From Podospora anserina (Eukaryota): DNA of 64,000 bases. Position 1 is the first letter of the stretch, and each line of letters begins with the position of its first letter. The translations under genes were made by a program, and so were the position numbers. The stretch spans positions 186,001-250,000 of the forward strand of contig JAFMPO010000001.1 of assembly GCA_017654855.1 (NCBI GenBank), read 5' to 3'. The notes beneath the pieces are model-generated. The model did not search any database, was not told the DNA's origin, and was given only the letters and a program-made list of their open reading frames with translations. Shown here piece by piece: positions 1 to 62,230 of the stretch.

Positions 1-3000
1 TCTTAATAGCATTATACCTCTATTTAGCCGGGCTCTAAATACTACTCTTAAACTAATAAAGGTACCGTTTTTTATTAAGTTCTACTTATTTAATTACCGT
101 TCCTTACCCCGTTAAACTTATATTAAAAATAATAAAAATTTTACCGAAATAATTATTATTAAACGTTAAAAAAACTAAATATAATATTTTTATAATTAAA
201 AAAGTAAGTTACGTTATTATACCCTATTAAACTTTTATTTATTTTTATTTCGTATCCTTCCTTATTAAGAAATATAGCGGAACTATAATTAAATTAAAGA
301 GAGGTACCTATAGTTAATAATAGCCGGTAATCCTTAAGAAAGCACGAATATCTTTTAAATTATAGTAAATTCGTTATTCCCTTATCTTTATTATTTTTAT
401 TTAATTAGGGAAGTATCCGTCCGGTATATAAAAATAGTTAAGGATAATAATTTTTTATTTATATTAAAGGGATTTTATAATTATAATTATAGTTTTTATA
501 AACTTATAATTAAATAAAACTATATTAATATTCTTTAAATACTCTAAAACCTACTTCTTAATTCCTAACCTCTCTTCTTTACTATTATAGTCCCACTTTA
601 GCCTTTTTACTATAATATTATTTAAATATAACCGACATACCTATAGAATAAAATCTTAAAAAACTTTAATTACAGTTCTTTAAAACTAAATTATTAAGTT
701 AGTAGCTCCTTAAAGTAAAGTATATATCCTAAATAGGCCGATAGGTATCGCGAAAGTAATAAGGTCTCGGCTCGTTAAAACTAATTTAACTTAATTATAT
801 TTAGAAAAGAAGTCGAGTAAGGAAGTAATAAAATACCCCCTAAAATCTTCGCTAAACTCCTTAATACTTAAAGGAATAAAGGTATTTTATTATATAACTT
901 TATTATATTTCTAAGCATCGTTAATTAAACGGAAACCACTATCCTTTTTTTTTACTAAAAACTAATTATTATAGTAAGGACTATACACTTCCTTAATAAT
1001 ACCTCTCTTAACCCGTTCCCTAAAAAGTTTAATAACTTTCCCTATAAATAATTTTAAAATTAAAATAAATTTACTTTACTACGTATTATAAAGAATAATT
1101 TTAATATATTAAGTAGGAAAAACCTTTTTAAAGATCCGTCTACACTCGGTAAAATCCTAAGCTAAGGCAGCCTCTTTTATAAATAAGATTATTATAAATA
1201 TTTTAATTTTTTAGTTTATTAAAATATTAATAGTTTATTTAATTAAATCGATTAACCGTTCCGAAATAAAGTATAACCCTCTAATTACTTTAAAAAACTT
1301 AAGTACTATAATATTATTAAATTTTAAACTGTATTATAAGGATTCCTTAATTACCGCCCATCTCCTTACTTTCTAATTCGGATCTCCCTCAAAAGTACTA
1401 TTATCTAACCTAATATTATTAACTAACTTTACCTTCTTATTTACCCTCTTATATATTATTATAGTAGTAATAGTCTCCGCAAGTGTTAACTAAGCTTACT
1501 TAAAAGTAGTAATTAGGCTAGTCTTAATATTATTTTTCTTTTTAAAAAGGGGCGGGGGTAGAGGCGGGCGACGTTTATATAACTATATAGCGAAGAGGCT
1601 ACATTAACTTAGTTAAGTAAGGGACTAATTAAATATCCCTAAATATATAGATGCAATATCGGGCTTAAATAGGGCTGTTATAGTAGTCGTCTGATTAGAC
1701 GGCGACGATGTTTTTAGTAGCGGTAGCGACGGTAATATTAATGGTACTAAATATAGACCTATTATAAAAGTCGGCGGTGGTGGTCGTTCTTTCCTAGAGA
1801 TTTTATCTAGGGTTAGAGTTCTTATCGTAATTTCCACTCTTCTAAGTTAAAACAAATATTTTTCCTTTTAACGTCCTTTCTCTCCCTCCCTCTAATTACT
1901 AACATTTTTTCCTCCTTTACTCTTTATATTCCCCTTTTCTTTATTTTTATAAAAAATAATATTAAACGCTAAATAATAATTTAATAATAATAAACTTAAT
2001 TCCCCTAAAATAAAATTAAATAAAAAATACCTAACTCCTTTATTTAGTCCCCTAATTACTTTATCCCCTTCCTCTAACTCCTCCGTTATTTACTTAAGGA
2101 TAAATATTCCTTTATTAACTAATCCTTTAAATACCTATAAGGATTAACTAATAAAAAAAATATTACCTCGATCCTTACCGTTATATTCCGCCTTTATCTT
2201 ATTAATTACCTCCTTTTTTACTATATAGGCCTTAATTAATTTTCCTTTATATAATATATTTATATTAATTATATAACCTTTTATAAAATTAAAGGTAAAA
2301 CTTATATTTATAAAGAACGGGATATTTAATAATAGGTTATAAAAACCTAAAACTTTAATATTATTAATAATAAAAAAATAATATAAAATTAAAACCTTAA
2401 TTAATATTATTAAAGTTTAAGTTTTACTTATAAACGTAACCGGATTTCTATAAAGGCTTTTAAACTATAGGTTCGTCGATACTATTAATAAATAAAACTT
2501 TTTAACTATAGCCCTATTAATTAGGTTATACTCCGAATTTATATTTAATATTATTAATATTTTCTTTAAAATTAGTAAAACGAAATTATAATATAATAAT
2601 AAAACGTTATAGGTTCTAGTAACGGCTCCTAAAAAAGTTCGTTTACTATCGGAAAGCCGGTTAATAAGCGTAAATAGTAAAGTCTATAATCGTTTTTCTA
2701 AATTATTATTTAATTAAACCTTACCTTTAATAATCTTCTTCTAGATACCTCCCTCGACTATACTATACTTACTATCTACCGTAATCCTATATAAAGTAGG
2801 GATAGTCTTTCTTTAATTAAATAAAAGAATTTTATTATATTTAGCCGTCTAAAAATTCGTTCGAACCGTTAACGGTAAAGCCTCCCCCTTCTATAAAACT
2901 TCTCTCTTTCTATCCGGGATACTTTTAAAAGATCTACGCTACTCGATTATCTTAATATCTTCGGTTATACTTTTTACGTAATTTATTAACCGGTAAATAA

Positions 3001-5754
3001 ATATAAATAAAACCCTATAATATTTTTTTAATATAAATTTAATTTAATTATAAATATATTTTTTAACTTTTTTAATAATATAATCCCTAAAGTTTTTTAC
3101 CTTACTATTAAATAACTTTAAACTACTCCGGACTTTATCCCTTTAATCGAACGAGACTCCCTTTTTAATTACCTTTAGTTTCTTTTACGCGGGGGTAAAT
3201 ATTATTTTCGGATTTTCGACTAAGGCTAAATTATTTATATTTTTTTTTAATAAATCTTCGATTTTTATTCTCTTCGCTCTTTATATATTTACCCTCACTT
3301 CTATTTCTTAATTATAAACGACTATTAAAGTATTATTAAAGTACTTTAGAATATTTTTAAATAATTATTTTTTTATTAAATAGTATTATAAAGTATTTTT
3401 AATAATATAATTATTAATTAAATTTTTATTAAACGGTATATAGAGTTTAAAGTATTTATAAAGTTTATTTAATTTAATATTTATAGCCCTAATTATTTAA
3501 ATAACTATTTACTTCCTTCCTTTAATTAAAGAAACCTCGGGTTTATATCCCTTACCTTTATAAGCTTTTTAGTACTTAACTTATTTCGTATAAGCTTTAT
3601 AAGCTTTATTTAATTTTAATTTTAACGAAATTATAGTACGAACTAAATTACTAACCTTCCCTTTACATTACGCTTTCCTTATATCCTTTTAATTAAACTA
3701 TATTTTTTTATTTTCCGGCCACTTTTTCTTACCGATATATACTTTACTTCCTTTAATATAGTATAGTCCCTACGCTTTATTATACTCTTTTTTTAAATAT
3801 TCTATTAATTTAACGTAATAATTAATTTTACCGTACTAAAAATACTTTTTTAATAAGGGAAGGCTATCGCGGTACTACCCCCCTAATTTTCCGAATTAAA
3901 TTTTAATATTAATAATAAGGAAAGTATTAAAAAATAAATCTATTTCTCTATTAAAGCTAATACTAAAATCTAGGAAGTAAAATATTTAGTTTTTTAAATA
4001 TTAAACGCGGGTCTTTATTATTTTAGATTTACCGTTTCCCGGTATAGAAAAACTATTATAGATATTTACCTTTAAATACTATAGTACTATTTCTTTATTT
4101 ATTATAGCGTTAATTATTATATATTAATTAAATACCTCGGCCGCTTAATTAAAAATAATAGGGGAGGGTATAATAATTAATTTATTTTTTTTATAGATTT
4201 TTCTTCCTATATTATATTTATTTTTAATTATATTATTAATTTAATTGCTTTAAATAATAAAATTTATAGATTTTAAATAACGTTTGGATCCTTTTTGGTT
4301 AATAAAAATTATTTTTATTAATTCGGAGAATTTTATTTAAAAGTAATTAATAACCTTAGCTTTTACTATTTCTTTTTCCCCGGTCGGTACTCGAAAGAAT
4401 AGTTTAAAATAATTAAAAATAACTTTCTTTAACTCGCTTATACCTTTAGGAATAACTTTAATATAAAAATTATTTAATTTTTTATAAATATTTTTATTTT
4501 ATTAGAGGTTATAGATTTTAAAAAAGCGTTTAAAGTAAATAATTAAAATAAATTAAATATCGGTAAGTATAGGTAGGTCTATATATTTATTAATTTATTT
4601 TTTTATATCGAAGTTATATTAAAATTTAAATTTACGAATGTAAAAAGTAAATTCTATAATATAATATTCTTTATAAGTATTTTTGAAATACTTTAGATAT
4701 TCCGTAAAGTATTTTCCTTTAAAATTATTTTTAAAATTAATTTTTTTCGGATTAAGGAATTTACGTTAAGGAAAATATATAAATATTATAGGATAGGGAA
4801 TTAAATAATTAAACGTAAGGGACCTTTAAAAGTAGTAATAATCGGGGTAAGCTTTTATAGGATATAGGTATCCGGGTTATTAGAATTAATATACGAATTT
4901 AAAAAGAGGAGCGGGATATCCGGTATACCGAATAAAAAGCGTAATATAATTTTAAATAATAAAATTTAGGTAAATACGAGGTCTATTTAATACGTTAAAA
5001 ACGTTAAGCTTTATAATCGGGCTACTTTAATTAAAAAGGGGGCGAGGGGTCTTAATATCTTTAAGGTAAACGCGGTTCGTAGCCGGGAAAAAAACGAATA
5101 GTAATAATTCCGGGGACCTAGCTGCCGGAATAACTATTTTTATTACGGAACGAGCCGTAGGAGCTTAATACCCCTAATTATCGCTAGGAAGGTTAACCAA
5201 AATAATAAGTAGGATATTATTAAATATATCGATACTCGATAATTACTATTATATTTATATTAATAGTATAGTTTTTTCTTTATATATATTATTAAAAATA
5301 TAAAAATAGTTATCCCTTATAACTTTAATATATAAGTATAAATTATATTTATTTAGATTAAAGGGAAAGTATCCTCGTCTCTTTATTTTTAAGTTCCTAA
5401 TATTTTAAATTAAACTAACCCGGAAATCCCTACGATTATCTATTATTATTAAATAATATACTAAGAAGATTCCTTTTAATTAAAAATAAAAAAGGACTTT
5501 AATAATTAATACGGAAATAAAATTTATTAACGAACTAATCTTAATTAATATTCTTAATTTACTTCCCGGTCCTATCCGGACTATATATTTAACTCTTTAC
5601 TCGCGGGTAAAAAGTTTAAAGTTTAATCGATAATAAAAGAGTTTTATTTGATTAAACGGAGAAAAATCGTTTCCGTTAAACCTCGCGGGGTTTAATAAAG
5701 TTATCGGTACTTATTATCGTTCGTAGCTTCGTACTTCCTCCAGTACCTAGGGCT
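1..5754 (-). mobile_element. RIP-degraded Ty3/Gypsy LTR retrotransposon, internal gag-pol region (continues left of the window)
   Basis: Very AT-rich and TpA-rich. The minus strand at about 545-640 reads VCRLYLNNIIVKRLKWDYNSKEERLGIKK, a RIP-mutated RT motif (YLDD..VKGPK..Y..EE..PGIR). A GATN-like motif lies near 700 and a protease-like LxxxSExNL near 2530-2560. Confidence 0.85.
1531..1854. mobile_element. Solo LTR (324 bp) inserted in the first Gypsy element
   Basis: GC-richer island. Termini are TATTTT (RIP form of TGTTTT) and AAAACA. Flanked by 5-bp direct repeat AATAT at 1526-1530 and 1855-1859. AGGTCTATAT motif on the minus strand near 1752-1761. Confidence 0.7.
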
Positions 5755-49802: not shown

Positions 49803-51085
49803 TCAGATATGGTCAGTCGTGCCAATCAAGGGCTTCCCAGAGCTCATGACCTCAATGAAGGTCTTGGGAGCCTCCTTCTCAAAGAACATCTTCTGGCTCT
49901 GAAGACTTCTCGTGATAACATTAATAGCGAAGGGGAACATCTCCCTCTCATAGGCAGCAACAGCCTCCTCGTTGACGCCCAGTTCCTTCAACTTTCCAGC
50001 AAGGATGATCGCATCTCTCATGGCGCAGTTGACACCATCACCAACGAATGGTGTCGTGACATGAGCAGCATCGCTAATCAACGTCACACCCGGGACAGTC
50101 TTCCAGTTGAGACTGTCTGTGGGGAAGTAGTATATGATCCAAGGTCTGAAGGGACCCTGACTTTGATTGATGATCTCCTTCATCTCATCCGAGTAAGGAC
50201 CAAAGAGGTTATCTCCCAAAAGGTACTTCTTGAACGCGTCCCAATCCTTGATGTCGACGAGACCGGCGTCGGTAAAGTTCTCGGGGCCGGGAATGCCGAC
50301 GTCGATACGGTAGTGCCCGTCGCCTTGTCTGCTGTTGAACATGTGGATACCCTTGCCCATGACGATTATGGACCCTATGCGGCAGAGCTCCTTCATCTTT
50401 TCGTAGTATGGACCGCCAGGGAGGATCTTGGTGGTGACGAACAGATTGCCGCTGTATTGTGGCTTTGCGTCGGTTACCTGTCGAGCGCTGTTAATACCCA
50501 GGTAGCTGAAACTCTCTAGAGCGGAAGGGAAATGGTCGACGAGGGATTTCTTACCAAATGCCGCACCTTGGACCAGGTACCATCGGCGCCGACTACAAGC
50601 CCGAACCCCGAAGTAGTGGTTCCATTAGCGAAATTGAGAACGATCTGCCCGTTCTCGTCACGGGTGGTGCTGGTAACTGGCTTCTTCCAGTGAACCTTCC
50701 CCTTGGGGATGCCACTGAGGAGGACCTTTCTGAGAGCCCAGCGGTCGATCTTAGGGGCATCACGGCCCTCACCAAAGTCGAAGAAATTCTCGCCCTTGTG
50801 ACTGAAGAGGCGATGGATGGTGGCGTCGCCGTATCGGGTATACTTCTTGAACTCTTCAAAGACACCAGCGTCCTTCAACGCTCTTTGACCGCTGCCAGGG
50901 TGTAGATCGAGGCAGCCACCACGAGGTGGGACATCCTCAGCACTGCTTTCATAGATGACGTAGTCGCAACCGCCCTGCTTCTCGAGGAGAGCACCAAGAG
51001 CCAGGCCAGACGGGCCGGCACCAACAATGCAGATCTTGTTGTTGTTTTTGTTGTTGTTGTTGTTGTTGCTGTTGCAAGAAGACAT
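49803..51085 (-). CDS. FAD-dependent monooxygenase (TetX/aromatic hydroxylase-like), possibly RIP-damaged
   Basis: IVGAGPSGL, GGCLDL, VGADG.WSKVR and xDAAH...PF.GDG.N.AM.DA motifs, one intron. N-terminal poly-Asn comes from an AAC repeat. Confidence 0.85.
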
Positions 51086-51342
51086 GGTGGATGTGGTGGT
51101 CTTGGTGGAACGGAAAAGGTTGAGGATGGGTTCAAAGATGCAAGACAGAGGAGGGATTGGCATAAAAATATGAGCCGAAGGGAAATAGGGTATCAAATGA
51201 GCGAGGGTGTGATGTGGACTTGAGCCCACTCTGATATCGTGAGTTTCCTGTATTAATAGAACGCTGGTGTTCACGTCCGCACAACAGGCATCCCATCCCC
51301 ATGATTCTCTGACCCAGCTCGCGACTCAGCACGGTGGATCAA

Positions 51343-52810: not shown

Positions 52811-55567
52811 TTACTCCGGAACCTCAACAATATGGTCTGCTTCCACTCTCCTACGTTCACGTCTTAGTGCTCTCCTCTCCGCTAAGCTCACTGAGCTGCC
52901 TTCGTTGGAAGTGTTCCTTCTATCTCCTTCCTCCGTACCTCTGAGAGAATCGTGTTCCAAGAGACTTATCGTGCTCGCGCTCTTTGGTAACGACCACCTT
53001 GACGAGGAAGGTCTTAGGGTCCTGTGCGGAAGAGATATGCTCGGTGTTCTAAGAAGAACGGTAGTGTTCGGCGATAAGACAGTTAAAGCTTCATCCTCGT
53101 CAACATGCTTTGCCTTTTGCTTCCTCTCGTTGTCACTTTTACTCGCACCGGCAAGCTTTGATCGGTCGTCTTGTTCGGATTCTCGATTTGGCTTATTGCT
53201 CAAGTCATCCCCAACAGATAACTTCTGCTGCAATGGCAAGGTGGTAGGGGCTGATACGTTTCTGATTGAGGTTCCGGCAAGGTCCCGAGGTCGGGGACGG
53301 CTTTCAAAATTGAGTGAAAGATTTTTGGATGTTATTGTCTCGCCGTTGACTTCCACAACGACCTTTAATGATGCCCCGTCAACGCTGGTGAGGCATGAGT
53401 AGCAAAAGTAGCGATACCTCTGGCCATGAGAATTTGTGCTGAAGGGAAGATCGTCAAATGGAATTGGAGAGCAGAAGTCAATCGTGCACAGATTCTTGAC
53501 CTCTGGTTCGATTCTAGTAGGGGGTTTGACTGTGTCGCAGCTGACCAGGTGTTCTGAAATGCGTGGGTACTCGTGCGGATCATGAATTGCGTAGTATCGA
53601 TAGTAAAGTTGCTTGCGAGGGGACGTCTCTGTTGTATTTTCACCCTGTATAGTCGTTAGACACATGAAGACATCGGCATGGGTGATGTGATTTGGATTGA
53701 CCTTTGTAACAAACCATCTGATTTGAGCATAAGCAATTGTTTCGAGAGTGATGGGGTCCACCATTTGGTCTCTCTCATCATGTACACCTTGCTGAAAGCG
53801 GGTATCGTATATGTGGCCATAGTTGCTACGTGATATTCGGGACGTAATTTTGATTTCAGCATCTTGGGTGCCCCGTATGACTGCGCCTCGGCATATAGCG
53901 GTCCATCTGTGAATATGAATTAATTAGCTTCCGCTCAATGAGGCTCACGTTCGGGACTCTCACGGTCCTGGCTCAGATGGCTGCATCACTGGGCAGTCAT
54001 CACCTAACCAACTACTCAGCCTTTCCCAGAGGTATCTAGATTTCCCAAACCCTCCGACCAAGATGACAAACTATCAGATTGTCTGTTAGCCCTACATTTG
54101 GCAGCTCTGGGTTTCCATACATACATTCGGACCTGACCCTGTTTTCTTTTCAAGTGTCTCAATTTGTGAGTCAACAAGATCCAATATCTTGGAGACAACA
54201 TGATCAAATATTTCCGCGATAGTAGACCTAAAAGATTAGAAGATATCCCAAAATTCACATGCCTGAGGTACGGCAGGGGCACTTACGATGACAATGTGAT
54301 GTCTGCCTGTCCAGTTAGTTGAACCACTCGAGCAGGAAGGCGCACCTTCCAGAGCTTTTCAGGACCCTGCTTCAATGTAAATTGTTGCTTGATACCATGT
54401 TCCCATGACTGATTCATCATCTCTGCAATTTCTTGTGGAGGGACCTGACGCCAAACATCTGTAGCAACGTGATCTCGAACAAGTGTCTCGAACTCCTGGT
54501 CCAGAAAGATCGCTCCACAAAGGGCCCCAGTACCTTCCACGGCTTCCCTAGCAGCAAATCTGTTGGTATCCACAACCTGGTAACTGATCAAGTCCTAAGG
54601 TCATTCAGTTTACAGTCAGTTTCTAATGATCAGGCCTCCAGGCGTTTTCTTCTAAAAAGAAAAGAAAGAGGGAAACTTACGACCGTGCCTCCCCCAGCGT
54701 CGACAACAGTTATGGATGTCCCGACCTTGTAGCCCCAGTTGTCAGCTAATTATCGACCAGATAGTGGCGGTATTGCATCCTACTTTGATGTCTGGTCTGC
54801 CTTTCATGTTGGTGAAAGTGGCAATTGCTGCAGCTTCAGGCTCAGAAACGAAGTCCAGTTCGGTTTCGCCACATTCACGAGGATCAAGTAAGCCCGCCAT
54901 ATTCGCTGCTTCGCGCATTCTCTCTCTCATGTAGGACTTCCAAATCGCGGGGACAGTGATGATAATTCGGAATGGCGTAGACTTGACGAAGCTGGGTGTC
55001 ATCGCCTTTTCTACGTCGGCCATAACATGACTCCAGAGGTTTCGCAAGTAATCCGCAATGACATCGATTGGTTTCTTTCCCATCTCCAACAACCGCTGTC
55101 TGGCACTGATAAGCTGGGGGGCATCCTTGAGGTGCTCTTGAAGGTCCGCATCGTCGAGAAGCAATAGTTTGAACCACCGAACAGATTCATCGAAGGTGAG
55201 AATATTATATCCCCAAGATGTGACCTGTTTGGTGGAAGAGTATGATATCGCTGTTGGTGTCTTCTCCCGTTCCGTGTTCATATATTGGACGCTATCCCAA
55301 TTCTTGACGAGATGGATATCCTCTGGCCGAACCTTTCCCGGACGCGCTGACCATGCAACACCAGTGTAGCTAAGACGGCCAAGTTAGAATACTAGGCATA
55401 ACAGAAGGCAAACCCGCGATTTTGCACTGGATCTGGTTACATGATACATACGTGGTTCCGAAATCAATTCCAAACACGAACGGCGCCGCACGCATTCCGA
55501 CGCTGCTAGACTTCGAAAGTAATGATAGTTGGCTCCCCAGCTGCGAGCCTGTGAGAGATCCCTCCAT
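52811..55567 (-). CDS. Atypical Hsp70-family (HSPA12-like) actin-fold ATPase, six introns; start uncertain
   Basis: Spliced exons give GIDFGTTYTGVAW, WFKLLL, ITVPAIW, EPEAAA, DAGGGTVDLISY, LVGGFGKSRYL and AICRGA, followed by a low-complexity C-tail. Confidence 0.88.
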
Positions 55568-56296
55568 ATTCAAGCTACCAGTCGTCTGGGTACCTCCGTT
55601 GGCAAAGGAAGCAACAATTGTATGTGAAGTTGATTTGGGCTCCAAGGTGTGGGCAAGACGGAGGAGAGCAGCTACCTAGATGTTGAGACTGAGGGATGTC
55701 CTGGTCGTGCATGTGGTCAAGCACCAGGCTTCTGGGCGGGCGCGACAGACTCCTCTGGCCACAACCCACCTGCGCTATCATTGTAAGCACAGACTCCTCC
55801 TTCCAGTCAGTCATCTCACCGAACGCCGACTCTTGCAAATAGGGCTAACCATGTTATTTCCAGGCGCTGACGCAGTCCAATCGTTCAATGCACTGCCCGC
55901 AAACCAAAACAACATGGTCGCCTTCAGGGCCGACGCCACATGCAAGAATATGTGTTTTCTTTCCCAGTAATCACCCACAGACAGCAACTGGCGGCGCCAT
56001 CATTGTCAATAGCTCAAAATTAAGCCTGCCACCCACCCCTCATCATTGTACCGTTACTTCGATCTGGAGATGCCGTAATGACTGCACACCCTCACGCGAT
56101 GGAAAGTCCCCCGCATTGGGCGGACTGGCCCAGGCAGGCAGTCCACGAGGTTTATCATGAGGACTTCCACATTTCAGGACAAATTAAGGGACACCAGGCC
56201 CCGTCATCACGATATCCTTTTTGCTCTCGTTTTCTTCAAACCTCCGGCCACCTTAACCGACGACCTTTGTCACCGTGACATATCTAACCCAGAAAG

Positions 56297-57427
56297 ATGG
56301 GCGAACCTGAACAAAGCATGATTTTCATCATGGGCCTCTCGGGTTCCGGCAAGTCAAGATTTGTAAACCTCTTGCGACAGAATTCGGTGCGCGAGGGAGC
56401 AGGTCTGCAATCAGGTACAACACCATTTCCGAGACACTGTCACAGGAGCTTATAGTAACGTCTTCCAGAAACCCAGGAATGTCAAGTCGTGCAGCTGCGA
56501 CTGAAGGACAAGCTAGTATCGGTTGTCGACACTCCAGGATTTGGCGACTCCCGAAAGACCGACGCCGAAATACTGTCAACCATATCCGACTTTCTCATTC
56601 TTCAGCATGCAGCTGGTTTCCGACTGAACGGTATCATCTGGCTGCATCCAATTGAACAACAGAGAATGCGCAGACCAGACCTCCAGGCCCTTACCATGTT
56701 CCATGATCTCTGCGGCAAGGATGCTCTCTCAGCCGTTACTCTACTCACCACTAGATGGGATCATGTTAAAGATGAGAGGACTGGTGCCATGCGCGAGCGG
56801 GAGTTGCGGAGGAGTTTCTGGAAGGATATGATCGACCACGGTGCCAACGCGCAACGCTTCAATGGCTCCTCAGAGATGGCGAAGTCAATTGTGCGGCGCT
56901 TGCTACGCAATAAACCGGTGATATTGCAAATCCAAAAGGATAGCATGGAGTCAGGCAAGAGGCTACGTGATACCGCCGCAGGGGCTAGAATTATGGAAGA
57001 TCTTGAGGTTGATCTGAAGAGACAGGAGGAGAAGGTAAAGAAGGCCGAGCGGGAACTCAAAGCCGGGGCACAATCTGGTGATCAGGCGACCGAACAAGCC
57101 TTACGAACACGGTACGAAGCAGAAGCGAGGGAAAGGGAGCGGCTCATCTCGAGCTGTCAACGAATGAATGCAGATCTGGGCCAAGAGATAATGGAAAAGT
57201 GGGACAGGATTCAAAAAGATTTACCACAGGCCGGAGCCGGGTCTGACTCGGACTCGTGCCTCGAACATGAGAAGCAAGTACCTAACAAGGGCACAGCTCC
57301 GAAAATCGAAAACACTCGAAGGAACAGGTGGAAAGGGCGGGTTTCTGCCTTTGCGAATGTTCTTGGCTTGACCCTGGCTGCGGTGGTCCACATTGTTCTT
57401 CCATTGGCTGGTATTGCCGTCGGCTGA
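56297..57427 (+). CDS. AIG1/GIMAP-like TRAFAC GTPase with coiled coil and C-terminal membrane anchor
   Basis: G1 GLSGSGKS in exon 1, G2 S.T across the intron (about 56414-56468), G3 DTPGF and G4 TRWD. A coiled coil and a hydrophobic tail (VLGLTLAAVVHIVLPLAGIAVG) follow. Confidence 0.88.
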
Positions 57428-57694: not shown

Positions 57695-59008
57695 ATGTTT
57701 GACAAGGTATTCCGACCGATAAATGACACAACGAATTCAAGCCGCAAAGGTCGTAGCAGGTTGCCAGAACCAGTTCGTTCGCCCACTCGTGGAGGGATAT
57801 TCCCAAAAGCAGGAACTCAAGCAAGGTACGTCGCCATTTGCCACAACAATCAAATGACCCCATGTGCAGGCACGAGCTTATCAATGTACAGAGCACCACA
57901 GATACCACAACGGCTATCAAGTGCCAGTCAGTCTCTAGCATGGCCAGCAAGTCCTTCAGCAAACTCTTTCCACCTGAGACAATTGAAGCAAGAGCTTGCT
58001 GAAAAAGACCGCAAGGTGAAGATTCTCTGCGAGGAGGTTGAGGAATTGAAGAAGGAGAAGGAAAGCCTGGAGAGGGAAATCGATCAGTACGACGACGAGT
58101 GCTTCAAGATGGAAGCAGAAAACAAGCAGCTTCGCGATGCCTTTGTTGCCCTCAAGGGTAACCCCAACCATCACATCGACGACGGTGTAGTCCAGTCGCG
58201 ATTCGGGGAAATCAAGTTCACCATCGAACAGATCGTTTCTATCCGTTATTCAAGCTCCACAACCATATCCAAAAGTATGCGATTAGACCATCCCTCGAAG
58301 CAGCTATTTTCGAATCTGGTGGAGGATGTGGATTGCTACCTAACACAACCAGTGGGAAAGGCCCTCTTGATAGAGGCATTTATCTGGAATTTCCTCATTT
58401 CGGAAGTTTTCAGCGGCAACGGGATGCTCTGGGCTGGCAAAGCATTTGAGCATGTCAAGTTTTTATCTCGTGAGCTTGAGAACGATACTGTTTCTCTGGC
58501 TGATCTTTACAGGTGGAACGCACACACAGCATCAATGTTGTTTTCCATGTATGATCTGGACAAAAGACGCATACAAAAAATTGCTTGGAATCTAAGGGCC
58601 AGCTTAGAACCTTGGCAGAATAAGTCTTTCAAGGAGGGACAATGCGACTCTCTAGACAAGCTTGTACTCTTGGCAGCAAAATTGGACGCCGATTTGGCCC
58701 GGAGCAAAGCTGAATATATGGTCTTCATGCTGGAGACCATCGAAGCGCTCAATGGGCTTGCGAAGAACAAATACGGGGTTCCTTTTGACCAGGACTACAT
58801 GGAGCTTGAGAGCGGAAACAATGACAGGTGCGGGGATGTGGAGCTTGTAGTATCCCCAACGGTGGCTAAGGTCGGGAACTCGGACGGGGAGAATTACGAT
58901 TGCTGTACTGTGCTGGTGCGAGCAAAGGTAATCTGTGGTGGCTCAAAAGCTGGTCGTCGCCAACAGTCTGCATCAACCCCCTCAAACTCTTTTCAGCCTC
59001 AAAGATAG
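57695..59008 (+). CDS. Coiled-coil protein with a GrpE-like C-terminal motif
   Basis: Long heptad region (LRQLKQEL...LRDAF). C-terminal GVPFDQDYME...GDVELVVSP...VLVRAKV. Confidence 0.75.
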   Translation: MFDKVFRPINDTTNSSRKGRSRLPEPVRSPTRGGIFPKAGTQARYVAICHNNQMTPCAGTSLSMYRAPQIPQRLSSASQSLAWPASPSANSFHLRQLKQELAEKDRKVKILCEEVEELKKEKESLEREIDQYDDECFKMEAENKQLRDAFVALKGNPNHHIDDGVVQSRFGEIKFTIEQIVSIRYSSSTTISKSMRLDHPSKQLFSNLVEDVDCYLTQPVGKALLIEAFIWNFLISEVFSGNGMLWAGKAFEHVKFLSRELENDTVSLADLYRWNAHTASMLFSMYDLDKRRIQKIAWNLRASLEPWQNKSFKEGQCDSLDKLVLLAAKLDADLARSKAEYMVFMLETIEALNGLAKNKYGVPFDQDYMELESGNNDRCGDVELVVSPTVAKVGNSDGENYDCCTVLVRAKVICGGSKAGRRQQSASTPSNSFQPQR

Positions 59009-60727
59009 AACAGACTTCATATAATTAATTGGAAGGCGTTCAGGCTCGGCCGTGAAGAAGCTTCGCAGAATTTAAGTCATGAGCTTGTATTCAAGAGTAC
59101 TTCCAACCCTTACCCATCTAATACTTGAAGCAATGAAAGTCTTCCTCTCACCCGAGCTCAATACTCTTGTCCTAGCTACCTACTTAGCGACACGATCGAA
59201 GTATTGAGCACATACACGCTGATAAACAACAAAGATAATCAGTCTGGACTCAAATTTATGCTACCGTATTTACGCATTTGAGGAAGGAGAGATTGCTTCA
59301 CGTCGGAGACTTATTGCACGTAGACTCTTTCTGGATGCTGCCATTTGCTTATATAACTGGTTGTCTGTAGTAATATCGGTAGGACCTGATTTATCTAGGA
59401 AAATTAGAACCCTTCTTTACACAATAGGAACATCAACTTAGGGGTAGCTGTTACTACGCCCTTTGGTCTTATGCTGAACAATCACCTATTGGTCGCTTCA
59501 ATCATTCCCACCTTGTCTACCTAGCGAAGTTATGACACTTGGACTTTTCCACGTCTTTTGTACTGAAGGGGTTCTTGTACAGGTGTTGGTGATGCGTACG
59601 ACCCGGCATAGCTGTTGCCGTCAATAGCCAACGCGCATCAGCAACAGGTAACTTTCTAAGTGTCAGGTGTTGAAGTCATTATTATGTCATCAACAAATCC
59701 CTGCCGAGCAGTTGGCAAGTCAATTGACAGAGCTCATTGGAGTGCTTGTCCTGAGAGGCTAGTCAGTATCTTGTGCAAATTCTTCCCCGAGTGCCGGCAA
59801 GATTTCACAGAACAGGTCCAGAATGCCTCTCAAGTACCTGTTCAGATGAAGACTGTCATCTGGCTTCCTAAAGAGCCGGCTCGAGTAAGATGGCATCTCC
59901 ATGCAGGGCAAATCTTACCATGGATTTGGATACTAATCTAGTTGGTGTTATGCAGGAACAAGAGCGAGAGCTAGGAGAGAGTCAAGAGGAAGAACAATCG
60001 CGATTCTCAGGAGGAGGTGGATCTCAGGCTACCTCTTAAAGTGTTGGGTCTTCACAAAAGAGCAATAATGTTCAGCAACAATGCTATTCAGTGTCTTGCA
60101 GATGTATAACACACGCCTTTCATATTGAGCTTGTACCTTCAGCTAGGGAATAGCCCTGTTAGCTACCCTTTAGGGCTTAACGCCTGTTGGGAACTCTTCC
60201 AGGCGTGGTTTAGGATATTATCCTGCATTGGTTTACTCTGTATTGCCTGCTTTTTCATCCATAATCAAACAAAACAAAAGGGGTTCAGGGGTTCGATGTC
60301 TGTGCGTATTTGGGGTCCACTCGGCCAAGGGTTAGGGGTGTGCTTTGGGAGTTCACAGAATACTTGCTGAGATGGTATTCAAAGCAATCATCCCAACACA
60401 TGGAGCTTTGAAGACAGGTTTTGAATTGCTGTTGTGGCACTACGGCATTCAAGGGTCTTTGGGTTATCTGTACCTATTCTCAGCCCCAGCCTCAATACGC
60501 GGGTACATCCGCCACATTGACTTGGCATCAGCACACAAGTTCGACGCGTCTTGCATCTATGTCAGCATTGGCATGGATGCTGTGCCGCAAATGCAACGCA
60601 CCGCCTTTAGGCTTCAGGGGTCGGCAGAAGGATGACCTCCGACAGGAGTTTTCAATCGACAACCGACAATTTTCTTTCACTTTGCAAAAGGTTAATTTTC
60701 ACGCGTTTCCCAGATCATCATGTGATC

Positions 60728-62230
60728 ATGTTCACCCTCACGCGATTCACGCGACACACAATCCTCATCCTTTTCTTCATCACACTCTCTGTTCTATTTT
60801 ATCACTCTTACAGAAATCCGCCAACGCAGAAAGGCTCCTCATTTCTTACATCAATCCCAGAAATTCTGAAGCCTCTCACTTCTGGGAAGCATCCCCCGCC
60901 GCGATACAAGCCAACACCATCATGGCTCCCTCCACCCGTTTTCGACCCATTCCCCTTGCTGGCGAATACCGCCGCCGATCCCCCACCAATACCCGAGTAC
61001 AATATTCCTCGTCCTGAAATGCACAAGGAATACGGCCTCGACCGCGCCCCCCCGCTCTTCATCGGCTTCACCCGACAGTGGCCCATGCTCCTCCAAGCAG
61101 TCGTCAGCTACATCACCGCGGGGTGGCCGCCAGAGAACATCTACGTGGTTGAAAACACCGGAGTGCACAACATGAACAAGCAAGGCAGACTCACCCTCCA
61201 GAACCCTTTCTACCTCAACCACACCACCCTCCACCGACTGGGCGTCACCGTAATCCAAACCCCCGTTCTGCTTACCTTTGCCCAAATGCAAAACTTCTTT
61301 CTGTCGATAGCCTACCAGGAAGACCACCCCTATTACTTCTACAGTCACCAAGATGTCCTCGTCTTCTCGTTTGAGGAAGGCCTCGACTTCATCAGCCGAC
61401 CGGCAGACGGCAACTGGGAATTCTACAGCGAGGCGGAGAAGAAGGAGATATTGTCTCCTGTCCAGGCCGGCAAAGAGGGCTACCGGACGATTTACGAGAA
61501 CTGCCTCCGCGACTTGCAAACAGTGATCAAAAGAAAGGAGCGCTGGGGTTTTAGATGGTATCAATACGACCACTTGACGCTTGTCAACAGGGAGGCAATG
61601 GAGGCTGTAGGCGGGTGGGACTCCCTGATTCCGTACTATGCAACGGACTGCGATATGAATGGCAAGATGGGGATGGACGGGTGGACCATGAAGCCGAGGA
61701 GGGTGGGGATTATCAATGATGTTTCCACCGTGCTGGAGGACTTGGAAGTACTCTATCGGAACAAGTACAAGATGCCAAAGTTTATCGATCCAGCGCCGTT
61801 GCCGCCGGAGAAGGAGGCAAAGATCGCAAAGGCCAAGGCGGAAAAGGAGGAGAAGGAGCGGAAGGAGAAGGAGGAAAAGGAGGGCAAGGCAAAGAGAGAG
61901 GAGCACGGATTGCCTGCTGATCAGCTGCAGTATTTCCGAGCTTTGAGGGCCGTGGGCGATGAGATGGGCAAGTACAAGTATCGGGATGGGGCTGAACAGC
62001 GGAACAACTGGCAACGGGCGCAACGAGGTGGTGAAGAAGAGCCGTTTTATTACAATGCGGATGGGTTTCATAGTGCCTTTTGGACGCTGACAGATGCCGG
62101 GAGACGCATCTACGAAGAGAAATGGGGTCATAGAGGTTGTGACTTGGCGTCTGGCACATCCCTGACGCTCAAGGACCAGTGGCGTGTGGAGAAGGACTGG
62201 GAAAAGAAGAAGGAGGACAAGAAAAATTAA
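60728..62230 (+). CDS. Type II membrane protein, putative GT-A fold glycosyltransferase
   Basis: N-terminal TM, Pro-rich stem, YVVENTG, HQDV and GGWD..IPYY.TDCD motifs. Confidence 0.6.
   Translation: MFTLTRFTRHTILILFFITLSVLFYHSYRNPPTQKGSSFLTSIPEILKPLTSGKHPPPRYKPTPSWLPPPVFDPFPLLANTAADPPPIPEYNIPRPEMHKEYGLDRAPPLFIGFTRQWPMLLQAVVSYITAGWPPENIYVVENTGVHNMNKQGRLTLQNPFYLNHTTLHRLGVTVIQTPVLLTFAQMQNFFLSIAYQEDHPYYFYSHQDVLVFSFEEGLDFISRPADGNWEFYSEAEKKEILSPVQAGKEGYRTIYENCLRDLQTVIKRKERWGFRWYQYDHLTLVNREAMEAVGGWDSLIPYYATDCDMNGKMGMDGWTMKPRRVGIINDVSTVLEDLEVLYRNKYKMPKFIDPAPLPPEKEAKIAKAKAEKEEKERKEKEEKEGKAKREEHGLPADQLQYFRALRAVGDEMGKYKYRDGAEQRNNWQRAQRGGEEEPFYYNADGFHSAFWTLTDAGRRIYEEKWGHRGCDLASGTSLTLKDQWRVEKDWEKKKEDKKN

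Follow-up and report, generated by a model that had tools for sequence, protein, structure and literature searches.

A GrpE-like beta domain in an Ascomycota family of coiled-coil proteins, encoded beside an HSPA12-like ATPase and an AIG1-type GTPase in Podospora anserina

GrpE and GrpEL1 consist of a stalk, short helices and a beta-wing, and act on the IB and IIB lobes, as set out in the available text of PMC11685456. Here we analysed a gene in a stretch of 64,000 nucleotides from Podospora anserina (GenBank assembly: GCA_017654855.1; contig: JAFMPO010000001.1, positions 186,001 to 250,000 of the forward strand), which is called the window below and is numbered from its first letter. The gene encodes a coiled-coil protein with a small C-terminal beta domain that resembles the GrpE beta-wing. 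In the predicted structure a long helix is followed by further helices and then by a small six-stranded beta domain, which is also the order of parts in GrpE, Mge1 and GrpEL1 (Pfam: PF01025) as far as the available description of these proteins goes. As with GrpE, the family gene is linked to a gene for an Hsp70-superfamily ATPase. In contrast to GrpE, however, the family protein starts with a long disordered stretch and shows no sign of acting in an organelle, and the ATPase presumed to be its partner is HSPA12-like and lacks a canonical substrate-binding domain.

To our knowledge, GrpE-type exchange factors are regarded as restricted to bacteria and organelles. We know of no co-chaperones or exchange factor for HSPA12-type Hsp70s, whose role is unclear. 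We tentatively propose, with a confidence that falls a little short of even, that the Podospora protein is a dedicated partner of the HSPA12-like ATPase, in which a stalk bears a beta-wing derived from GrpE and this wing acts on the nucleotide-binding lobes.

Prokaryotic systems have been described in which a central GTPase is accompanied by HSP70 and GrpE, at times also by a lid-less HSP70 (Kaur, Burroughs, Iyer and Aravind 2020, PMC7159879). These bacterial systems are the sole precedent we found; the literature searched, with subscription-only papers outside the search, describes neither the fungal family nor the trio of genes to which it belongs. As described in the available text of PMC7159879, GAP1-N2-type neighbourhoods combine a TRAFAC-class GTPase, an HSP70-family ATPase (in some cases without the peptide-binding domain) and a GrpE-type partner, and the Podospora locus is similar in this respect. 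According to the same text, the bacterial systems occur in actinobacteria and firmicutes, contain a bona fide GrpE and a GTPase of a different clade, and include FNIII and DnaJ components, whereas the GTPase of the fungal trio is AIG1/GIMAP-like and tail-anchored and its third partner is only GrpE-like. A survey of the Hsp70s of Ascomycota (PMC3879978) covers seven yeast-type subfamilies, with no mention of HSPA12 in its available text. The nematode Halicephalobus mephisto reportedly has both its Hsp70 and its AIG1 families expanded, the AIG1 genes possibly having come from a fungus (PMC6872716, available text); this joint expansion echoes the pairing of Hsp70-type and AIG1-type genes seen here.

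An expressed member of a large Ascomycota family

The continuous open reading frame of the coiled-coil family gene comprises 437 codons, of which 22 are intronic (Table 1). Expression was analysed in four public runs from four studies. None of these is on record as RNA; the canonical splice joints found on both strands in their contigs were the ground for treating them as transcript assemblies. The intron joint (57823->57890, 'skips 66, GT..AG (cut +2)') is present in contigs of 4/4 runs, and the contigs extend over exon 2 to ~59018-59052. The sole close relative in the databases, QC762_121870 (P0002) of Podospora pseudocomata, has 415 amino acids (aa), is 92% identical by BLASTP and 96% in the alignment, and lacks the intron-encoded residues. 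The first-pass annotation of the window, made from its letters, had implied an uninterrupted reading frame, which the orthologue and all four runs correct; the intron lies far upstream and leaves the C-terminus unaffected. The residues on which that annotation rested, GVPFDQDYME followed by GDVELVVSPTVAKVG..G..Y..TVLVRAKV, are indeed encoded at the C-terminus of this expressed gene. In the unspliced reading the first motif corresponds to residues 361-370, and the stretch as a whole ends at position 58930, inside the interval of 58770-58940 that had been assigned to the domain. The N-terminus, inspected by eye, is basic and proline-rich with three acidic residues, and it is not conserved across the family.

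An exhaustive HMMER search detected 225 representative clusters related to the family protein at E<=0.001. In the ESM Atlas the protein falls in clusters of hypothetical proteins that are confined to Ascomycota and lack a common Pfam family; the largest comprises 4377 members. Pfam searches with the full protein and with 84 members gave only coiled-coil matches below threshold. The gene thus encodes a member of a large, Ascomycota-restricted family that is described by no Pfam model. Conservation within the family is highest in the beta domain and the helix preceding it, and the C-terminal consensus reads L..I...A..LD.....S.A ... G..F....ME ... V.L..SP.L.K.G..DG..Y....VL.KA.V.C.

The Atlas comparison also offers another identity for the C-terminal region, namely kinship with MIEAP (PF16026) or with plant GIL1/IRKI (PF24994), coiled-coil proteins with a C-terminal domain, and not with GrpE. 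Among named clusters, MIEAP and GIL1 come closest to residues 250-352 (scores 0.81 and 0.80), and MIEAP again comes closest to the 372-residue fragment encoded at 57890-59005 (score 0.80). However, in a third of cases shuffled proteins also attain 0.8 according to the Atlas tool, and just three of the ten best named matches share a family. The PF16026 and PF24994 models had no match either in the full protein (E<=1) or in any of the 23 pieces of the C-terminus (E<=10). We give such a kinship only a slight chance.

For the prediction of the fold, an AlphaFold2 model was calculated from an alignment of 84 sequences, with residue numbering that begins at position 57890. It reached a mean predicted local distance difference test (pLDDT) score of 86.5 and a predicted template modelling (pTM) score of 0.77, whereas the fold from the single sequence was unusable (pLDDT 46). 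The modelled protein has a disordered start, a helix of 67 residues with pLDDT 90-98, a helical domain of ~175 residues with eight helices, and six short strands in its last 75 ordered residues. DSSP assigned the strands of the beta domain to residues 275-279, 304-306, 316-322, 324-328, 339-343 and 345-349. The long coiled coil and the helical region that the first-pass annotation had placed before the motif are therefore present in the model.

Foldseek comparison of the model with the PDB returned no match at E<=0.001, the helical domain included. Weak rows for RhoGEF DH domains (E 0.37-0.73) were rejected as a candidate; they are absent from the 50 VIA-align rows listed, the lowest of which has Z 2.2. 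VIA-align against 48,161 representatives did not show GrpE among its best 50 rows, which are coiled-coil matches to residues 18-93, so that the globular part was barely probed.

Likeness of the beta domain to the GrpE beta-wing

We compared the beta domain with a GrpE profile made from E. coli GrpE and the GrpEs of diverse Pseudomonadota genomes, which are 29-62% identical to E. coli GrpE; six sequences of this profile are divergent second copies. A divergent second GrpE-like gene occurs in 6 of 61 Pseudomonadota genomes (G031, G039, G027, G047, G003 and G035), and these second copies score 61-68 bits compared with ~145-190 for the main copy.

Alignment of the beta domain of 84 members with the beta-wing of 31 GrpEs by hhalign gave a score of 16.5 (P 0.0055). 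With 140 members and 51 GrpEs the score was 23.7 (Prob 60.8%, P 8.2e-5), and both set sizes give one register, in which G.PFD..ME lies on G.PFDP..HQA. The score of 23.7 was attained by 0 of 150 column-permuted GrpE profiles, whose maximum was 14.6, and unrelated real-profile controls (n=19) scored 5.7-16.7. Ungapped sliding of the profiles ranked the motif and the last hairpin first at colinear GrpE offsets, and the last hairpin at its colinear offset, which is where the first-pass annotation had placed it, stood ~3 standard deviations above the mean of all offsets. The family stretches G..FD...ME and VL.KA.V would accordingly correspond, in colinear order, to G.PFDP..HQA and LLRPAMV of GrpE. 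At the level of sequence profiles, the resemblance of the beta domain to the GrpE motif exceeds the permuted nulls and the real-profile controls.

Several results weigh against a GrpE origin. The significant sequence signal is a single motif of 13 columns (G.PFD..ME vs G.PFDP.HQA). The segment downstream of it, aligned alone by hhalign, scored 10.2 in another register, a value reached by 17 of 150 nulls, and the segment upstream gave no hhalign signal. In ungapped sliding, the colinear GrpE offsets of hairpin 1 and strand 1 were not ranked first. Whole-profile hhalign against GrpE gave probabilities of just 1-36%. The helices were mapped inconsistently by hhalign (P 0.02-0.04). All family members carry a Met at the position of the GrpE His, and the helical domain far exceeds the two short helices of GrpE. 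The GrpE proposal was, moreover, made with the Hsp70 neighbour in view, and the test of the motif is therefore linked in part to the way in which the proposal arose.

Unlike among true GrpEs, there is also no similarity at the HMMER level. The Pfam GrpE model was unmatched by the full protein at E<=1, by 84 members at E<=0.01 (0/84, GrpE not being among the 25 families listed) and by 23 C-terminal pieces at E<=10 (0/23). BLASTP of E. coli GrpE against the family protein gave E 2.2, and sequence and profile searches of the PDB returned no GrpE, only coiled-coil noise or helices of exopolyphosphatases. The family profile found 16 weak matches in 201 Pseudomonadota genomes, and none of the five that were checked is a GrpE; the remaining 11 cover only the helical part of the profile, the comparison with GrpE coordinates having been made for five only.

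The first-pass annotation had interpreted the protein as a divergent GrpE homologue. The colinear, motif-level likeness of the profiles and the order of parts support this interpretation in part, but they do not suffice to place the protein in the GrpE family. The beta domain may be truly homologous to that of GrpE, and a GrpE-like mode of action of the family protein is plausible.

A trio of genes with an HSPA12-like ATPase and an AIG1-type GTPase

The features of the family gene, of its neighbours and of a second locus are listed in Table 1.

Table 1. Positions of the coiled-coil family gene, its predicted parts, its neighbours and the corresponding genes of a metagenome contig (window coordinates unless L114 is given)
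Feature	Position	Strand	Details
Coiled-coil family gene (GrpE-like candidate)	57695-59008	+	two exons; 415 aa after splicing
Exon 1 of the family gene	57695..57825	+	opens at ATG; Arg/Ser/Pro-rich N-terminus, predicted disordered; from translation, orthologue and RNA contig joints
Intron of the family gene	57826..57891	+	66 nt, in frame, GT..AG; without counterpart in the orthologue; RNA joints
Exon 2 of the family gene	57892..59008	+	through the stop codon; from the list of open reading frames and RNA contig coverage
Long single alpha-helix, predicted coiled-coil stalk	57953..58153	+	model residues 22-88 (67 residues)
Predicted helical domain, ~175 residues	58181..58699	+	model residues 98-270; contains Trp and Asp positions that are conserved among the members
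Predicted six-stranded beta domain, GrpE beta-wing-like part	58712..58936	+	model residues 275-349; C-terminal
Motif GVPFDQDYME (consensus G..FD...ME)	58775..58804	+	aligns with GrpE G.PFDP..HQA (hhalign, sliding)
Last hairpin CTVLVRAKVIC (consensus VL.KA.V.C)	58904..58936	+	best match E. coli GrpE 182-192 (GRTIRAAMVTV)
AIG1/GIMAP-like GTPase gene	56297..57427	+	exon 1 56297-56411, intron ~56412-56465; between the HSPA12-like and family genes
HSPA12-like Hsp70-superfamily ATPase gene	52811..55567	-	seven introns; divergent from the GTPase gene; 767-aa orthologue P0274 maps there
HSPA12-like gene of L114	~391-2522	-	tblastn E 1e-24
AIG1-like GTPase gene of L114	P-loop 3936-3992, exon 4074-4658	+	35% identical to that of the window, E 1e-27
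Family member of L114	6022-7440	+	

The GTPase gene encodes the P-loop GLSGSGKS in its first exon, as read from the translation, and the last part of its second exon codes for a coiled coil and for a hydrophobic C-terminal tail, which is predicted from the sequence to be an anchor. The Pfam AIG1 model matched the second exon alone with E 8.8e-6 and 25.6 bits, slightly below its cut-off of 27 bits. The spliced joint of this gene was found in 4/4 runs. At position 55951, in the divergent promoter or 5' region of the GTPase gene, run X2 has a C and the window a T, which is probably a strain difference.

The ATPase neighbour resembles HSPA12A/B in that it matches the Hsp70 profile in the nucleotide-binding part only (26.3 bits for the orthologue P0274, Pfam HSP70 profile positions 125-351 of 599). 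Its relatives are named 'actin-like ATPase domain-containing protein' or 'Heat shock 70 kDa protein 12A/12B', and a search with it gave 215 matches at E<=0.001. Unlike HSPA12A/B, the fungal HSPA12-like proteins form a separate, expanded group. RNA contigs contain all seven CT..AC joints of the gene, with short introns of 54-86 nt. By eye, the last ~170 residues of the protein are of low complexity.

Each gene of the trio is covered by separate spliced contigs in four runs from four studies. The two upstream regions share one 9-mer only, which is about the number estimated by chance, and heat-shock elements were not found in the upstream regions of the window. The surroundings further contain a long open reading frame of 539 aa with a Lys/Glu-rich stretch (60611-62230, plus strand) and a two-part open reading frame (49803-51325, minus strand).

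We searched for the trio elsewhere with a degenerate DNA pattern for SP.L.K.GN.DG..YD, which detected three metagenome contigs, all encoding family members. L114 (7968 bases) is the only one of the three that is long enough to reveal neighbours. It carries all three genes in the order and orientation of the window, with protein identities of 25-35%, and an HSPA12-like gene thus lies within two genes of a family member both in the window and on the one further contig that could be tested. Since the trio neighbourhood recurs on this distant contig, a functional link between the family protein and the HSPA12-like ATPase is suggested. The proposal in the first-pass annotation that the protein serves the neighbouring Hsp70 gains from this recurrence, with the qualification that the neighbour is HSPA12-like and not a canonical cytosolic Hsp70. 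The two genes are also not a plain pair, as a GTPase gene that the annotation did not mention separates them.

This intervening gene raises the question whether the protein serves the GTPase instead. It could be a coiled-coil protein that serves the tail-anchored GTPase as adaptor, regulator or effector, its GrpE-like motif having arisen by convergence or chance and the nucleotide cycle of the ATPase being untouched; as a variant, it might pair with the coiled coil of the GTPase or be recruited by it to the membrane. The GTPase gene lies directly upstream of the family gene and on the same strand in the window and on L114. An N-terminal AIG1 domain was moreover detected above the Pfam cut-off in 2/151 family representatives, both among the 21 longest, while 0/120 HSPA12-like proteins carry the family domain. 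In these two proteins (P0048 and P0031) the AIG1-type GTPase domain precedes the family domain, so that fused or merged forms join the family to the GTPase, which counts against the proposed partnership with the ATPase, as does the dependence of the GrpE likeness on one short motif. P0048, however, has a hydrophobic segment between its GTPase and family parts and may be a merged gene model, whereas P0031 has no such segment and may be a true fusion. Fused or merged, P0048 is an instance of GTPase-family adjacency in another genome. Against a role with the GTPase alone, the HSPA12-like gene is present in both neighbourhoods, the score of the GrpE motif lies above every null and control, and the RhoGEF DH-domain rows of Foldseek did not recur in the listed VIA-align rows. 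Taken with the points in its favour, we consider a role as GTPase adaptor rather unlikely, although less so than the remaining alternatives.

One of these is that the protein has no functional relation to its neighbours, being for example bZIP-like or a structural coiled-coil protein, and that two expanded families lie side by side by chance. One source labels the orthologue 'BZIP domain-containing protein', and chance adjacency becomes likelier as family proteins and HSPA12-like proteins are both numerous in Ascomycota. The synteny, moreover, rests on one extra contig and two fused forms, a further point against the proposed partnership with the ATPase. The Pfam bZIP_1 model (PF00170), on the other hand, matched with E 0.063 and 13.8 bits against a cut-off of 27.6 bits, within generic coiled-coil noise. 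The order and orientation of the trio are kept on L114 at 25-35% identity, and forms fused with the GTPase exist. Mere chance adjacency appears improbable to us.

If the protein is a partner of the HSPA12-like ATPase, as we tentatively favour, its coiled coil would form a dimeric stalk, and the beta domain with its degenerate GrpE beta-wing motif would dock on the nucleotide-binding lobes of the ATPase. The docked beta domain could then modulate the exchange of ADP and ATP, as GrpE does for DnaK, and the tail-anchored AIG1/GIMAP-like GTPase may tie the machine to a membrane.

A wider role of the trio

A broader and considerably more speculative view, which we regard as unlikely at present, is that the ATPase, the tail-anchored GTPase and a partner derived from GrpE work together at a membrane as one machine, which has expanded in filamentous ascomycetes. 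Such a machine might correspond in eukaryotes to the bacterial GTPase-HSP70-GrpE conflict systems, or descend from them, and could serve responses to stress or non-self, or cell death, rather than the folding of proteins in general. In that case the partner would bring GrpE-type exchange factors to the cytosol for the first time, and no co-factor of an HSPA12-type Hsp70 would have been known before it.

The conserved and expressed trio of an HSPA12-like ATPase, a GrpE-like coiled-coil protein and an immunity-type GTPase provides a concrete set of proteins that can be tested, and Podospora is a tractable laboratory fungus for such tests. The trio ties fungi to a theme of gene neighbourhoods that has so far been described in bacteria only.
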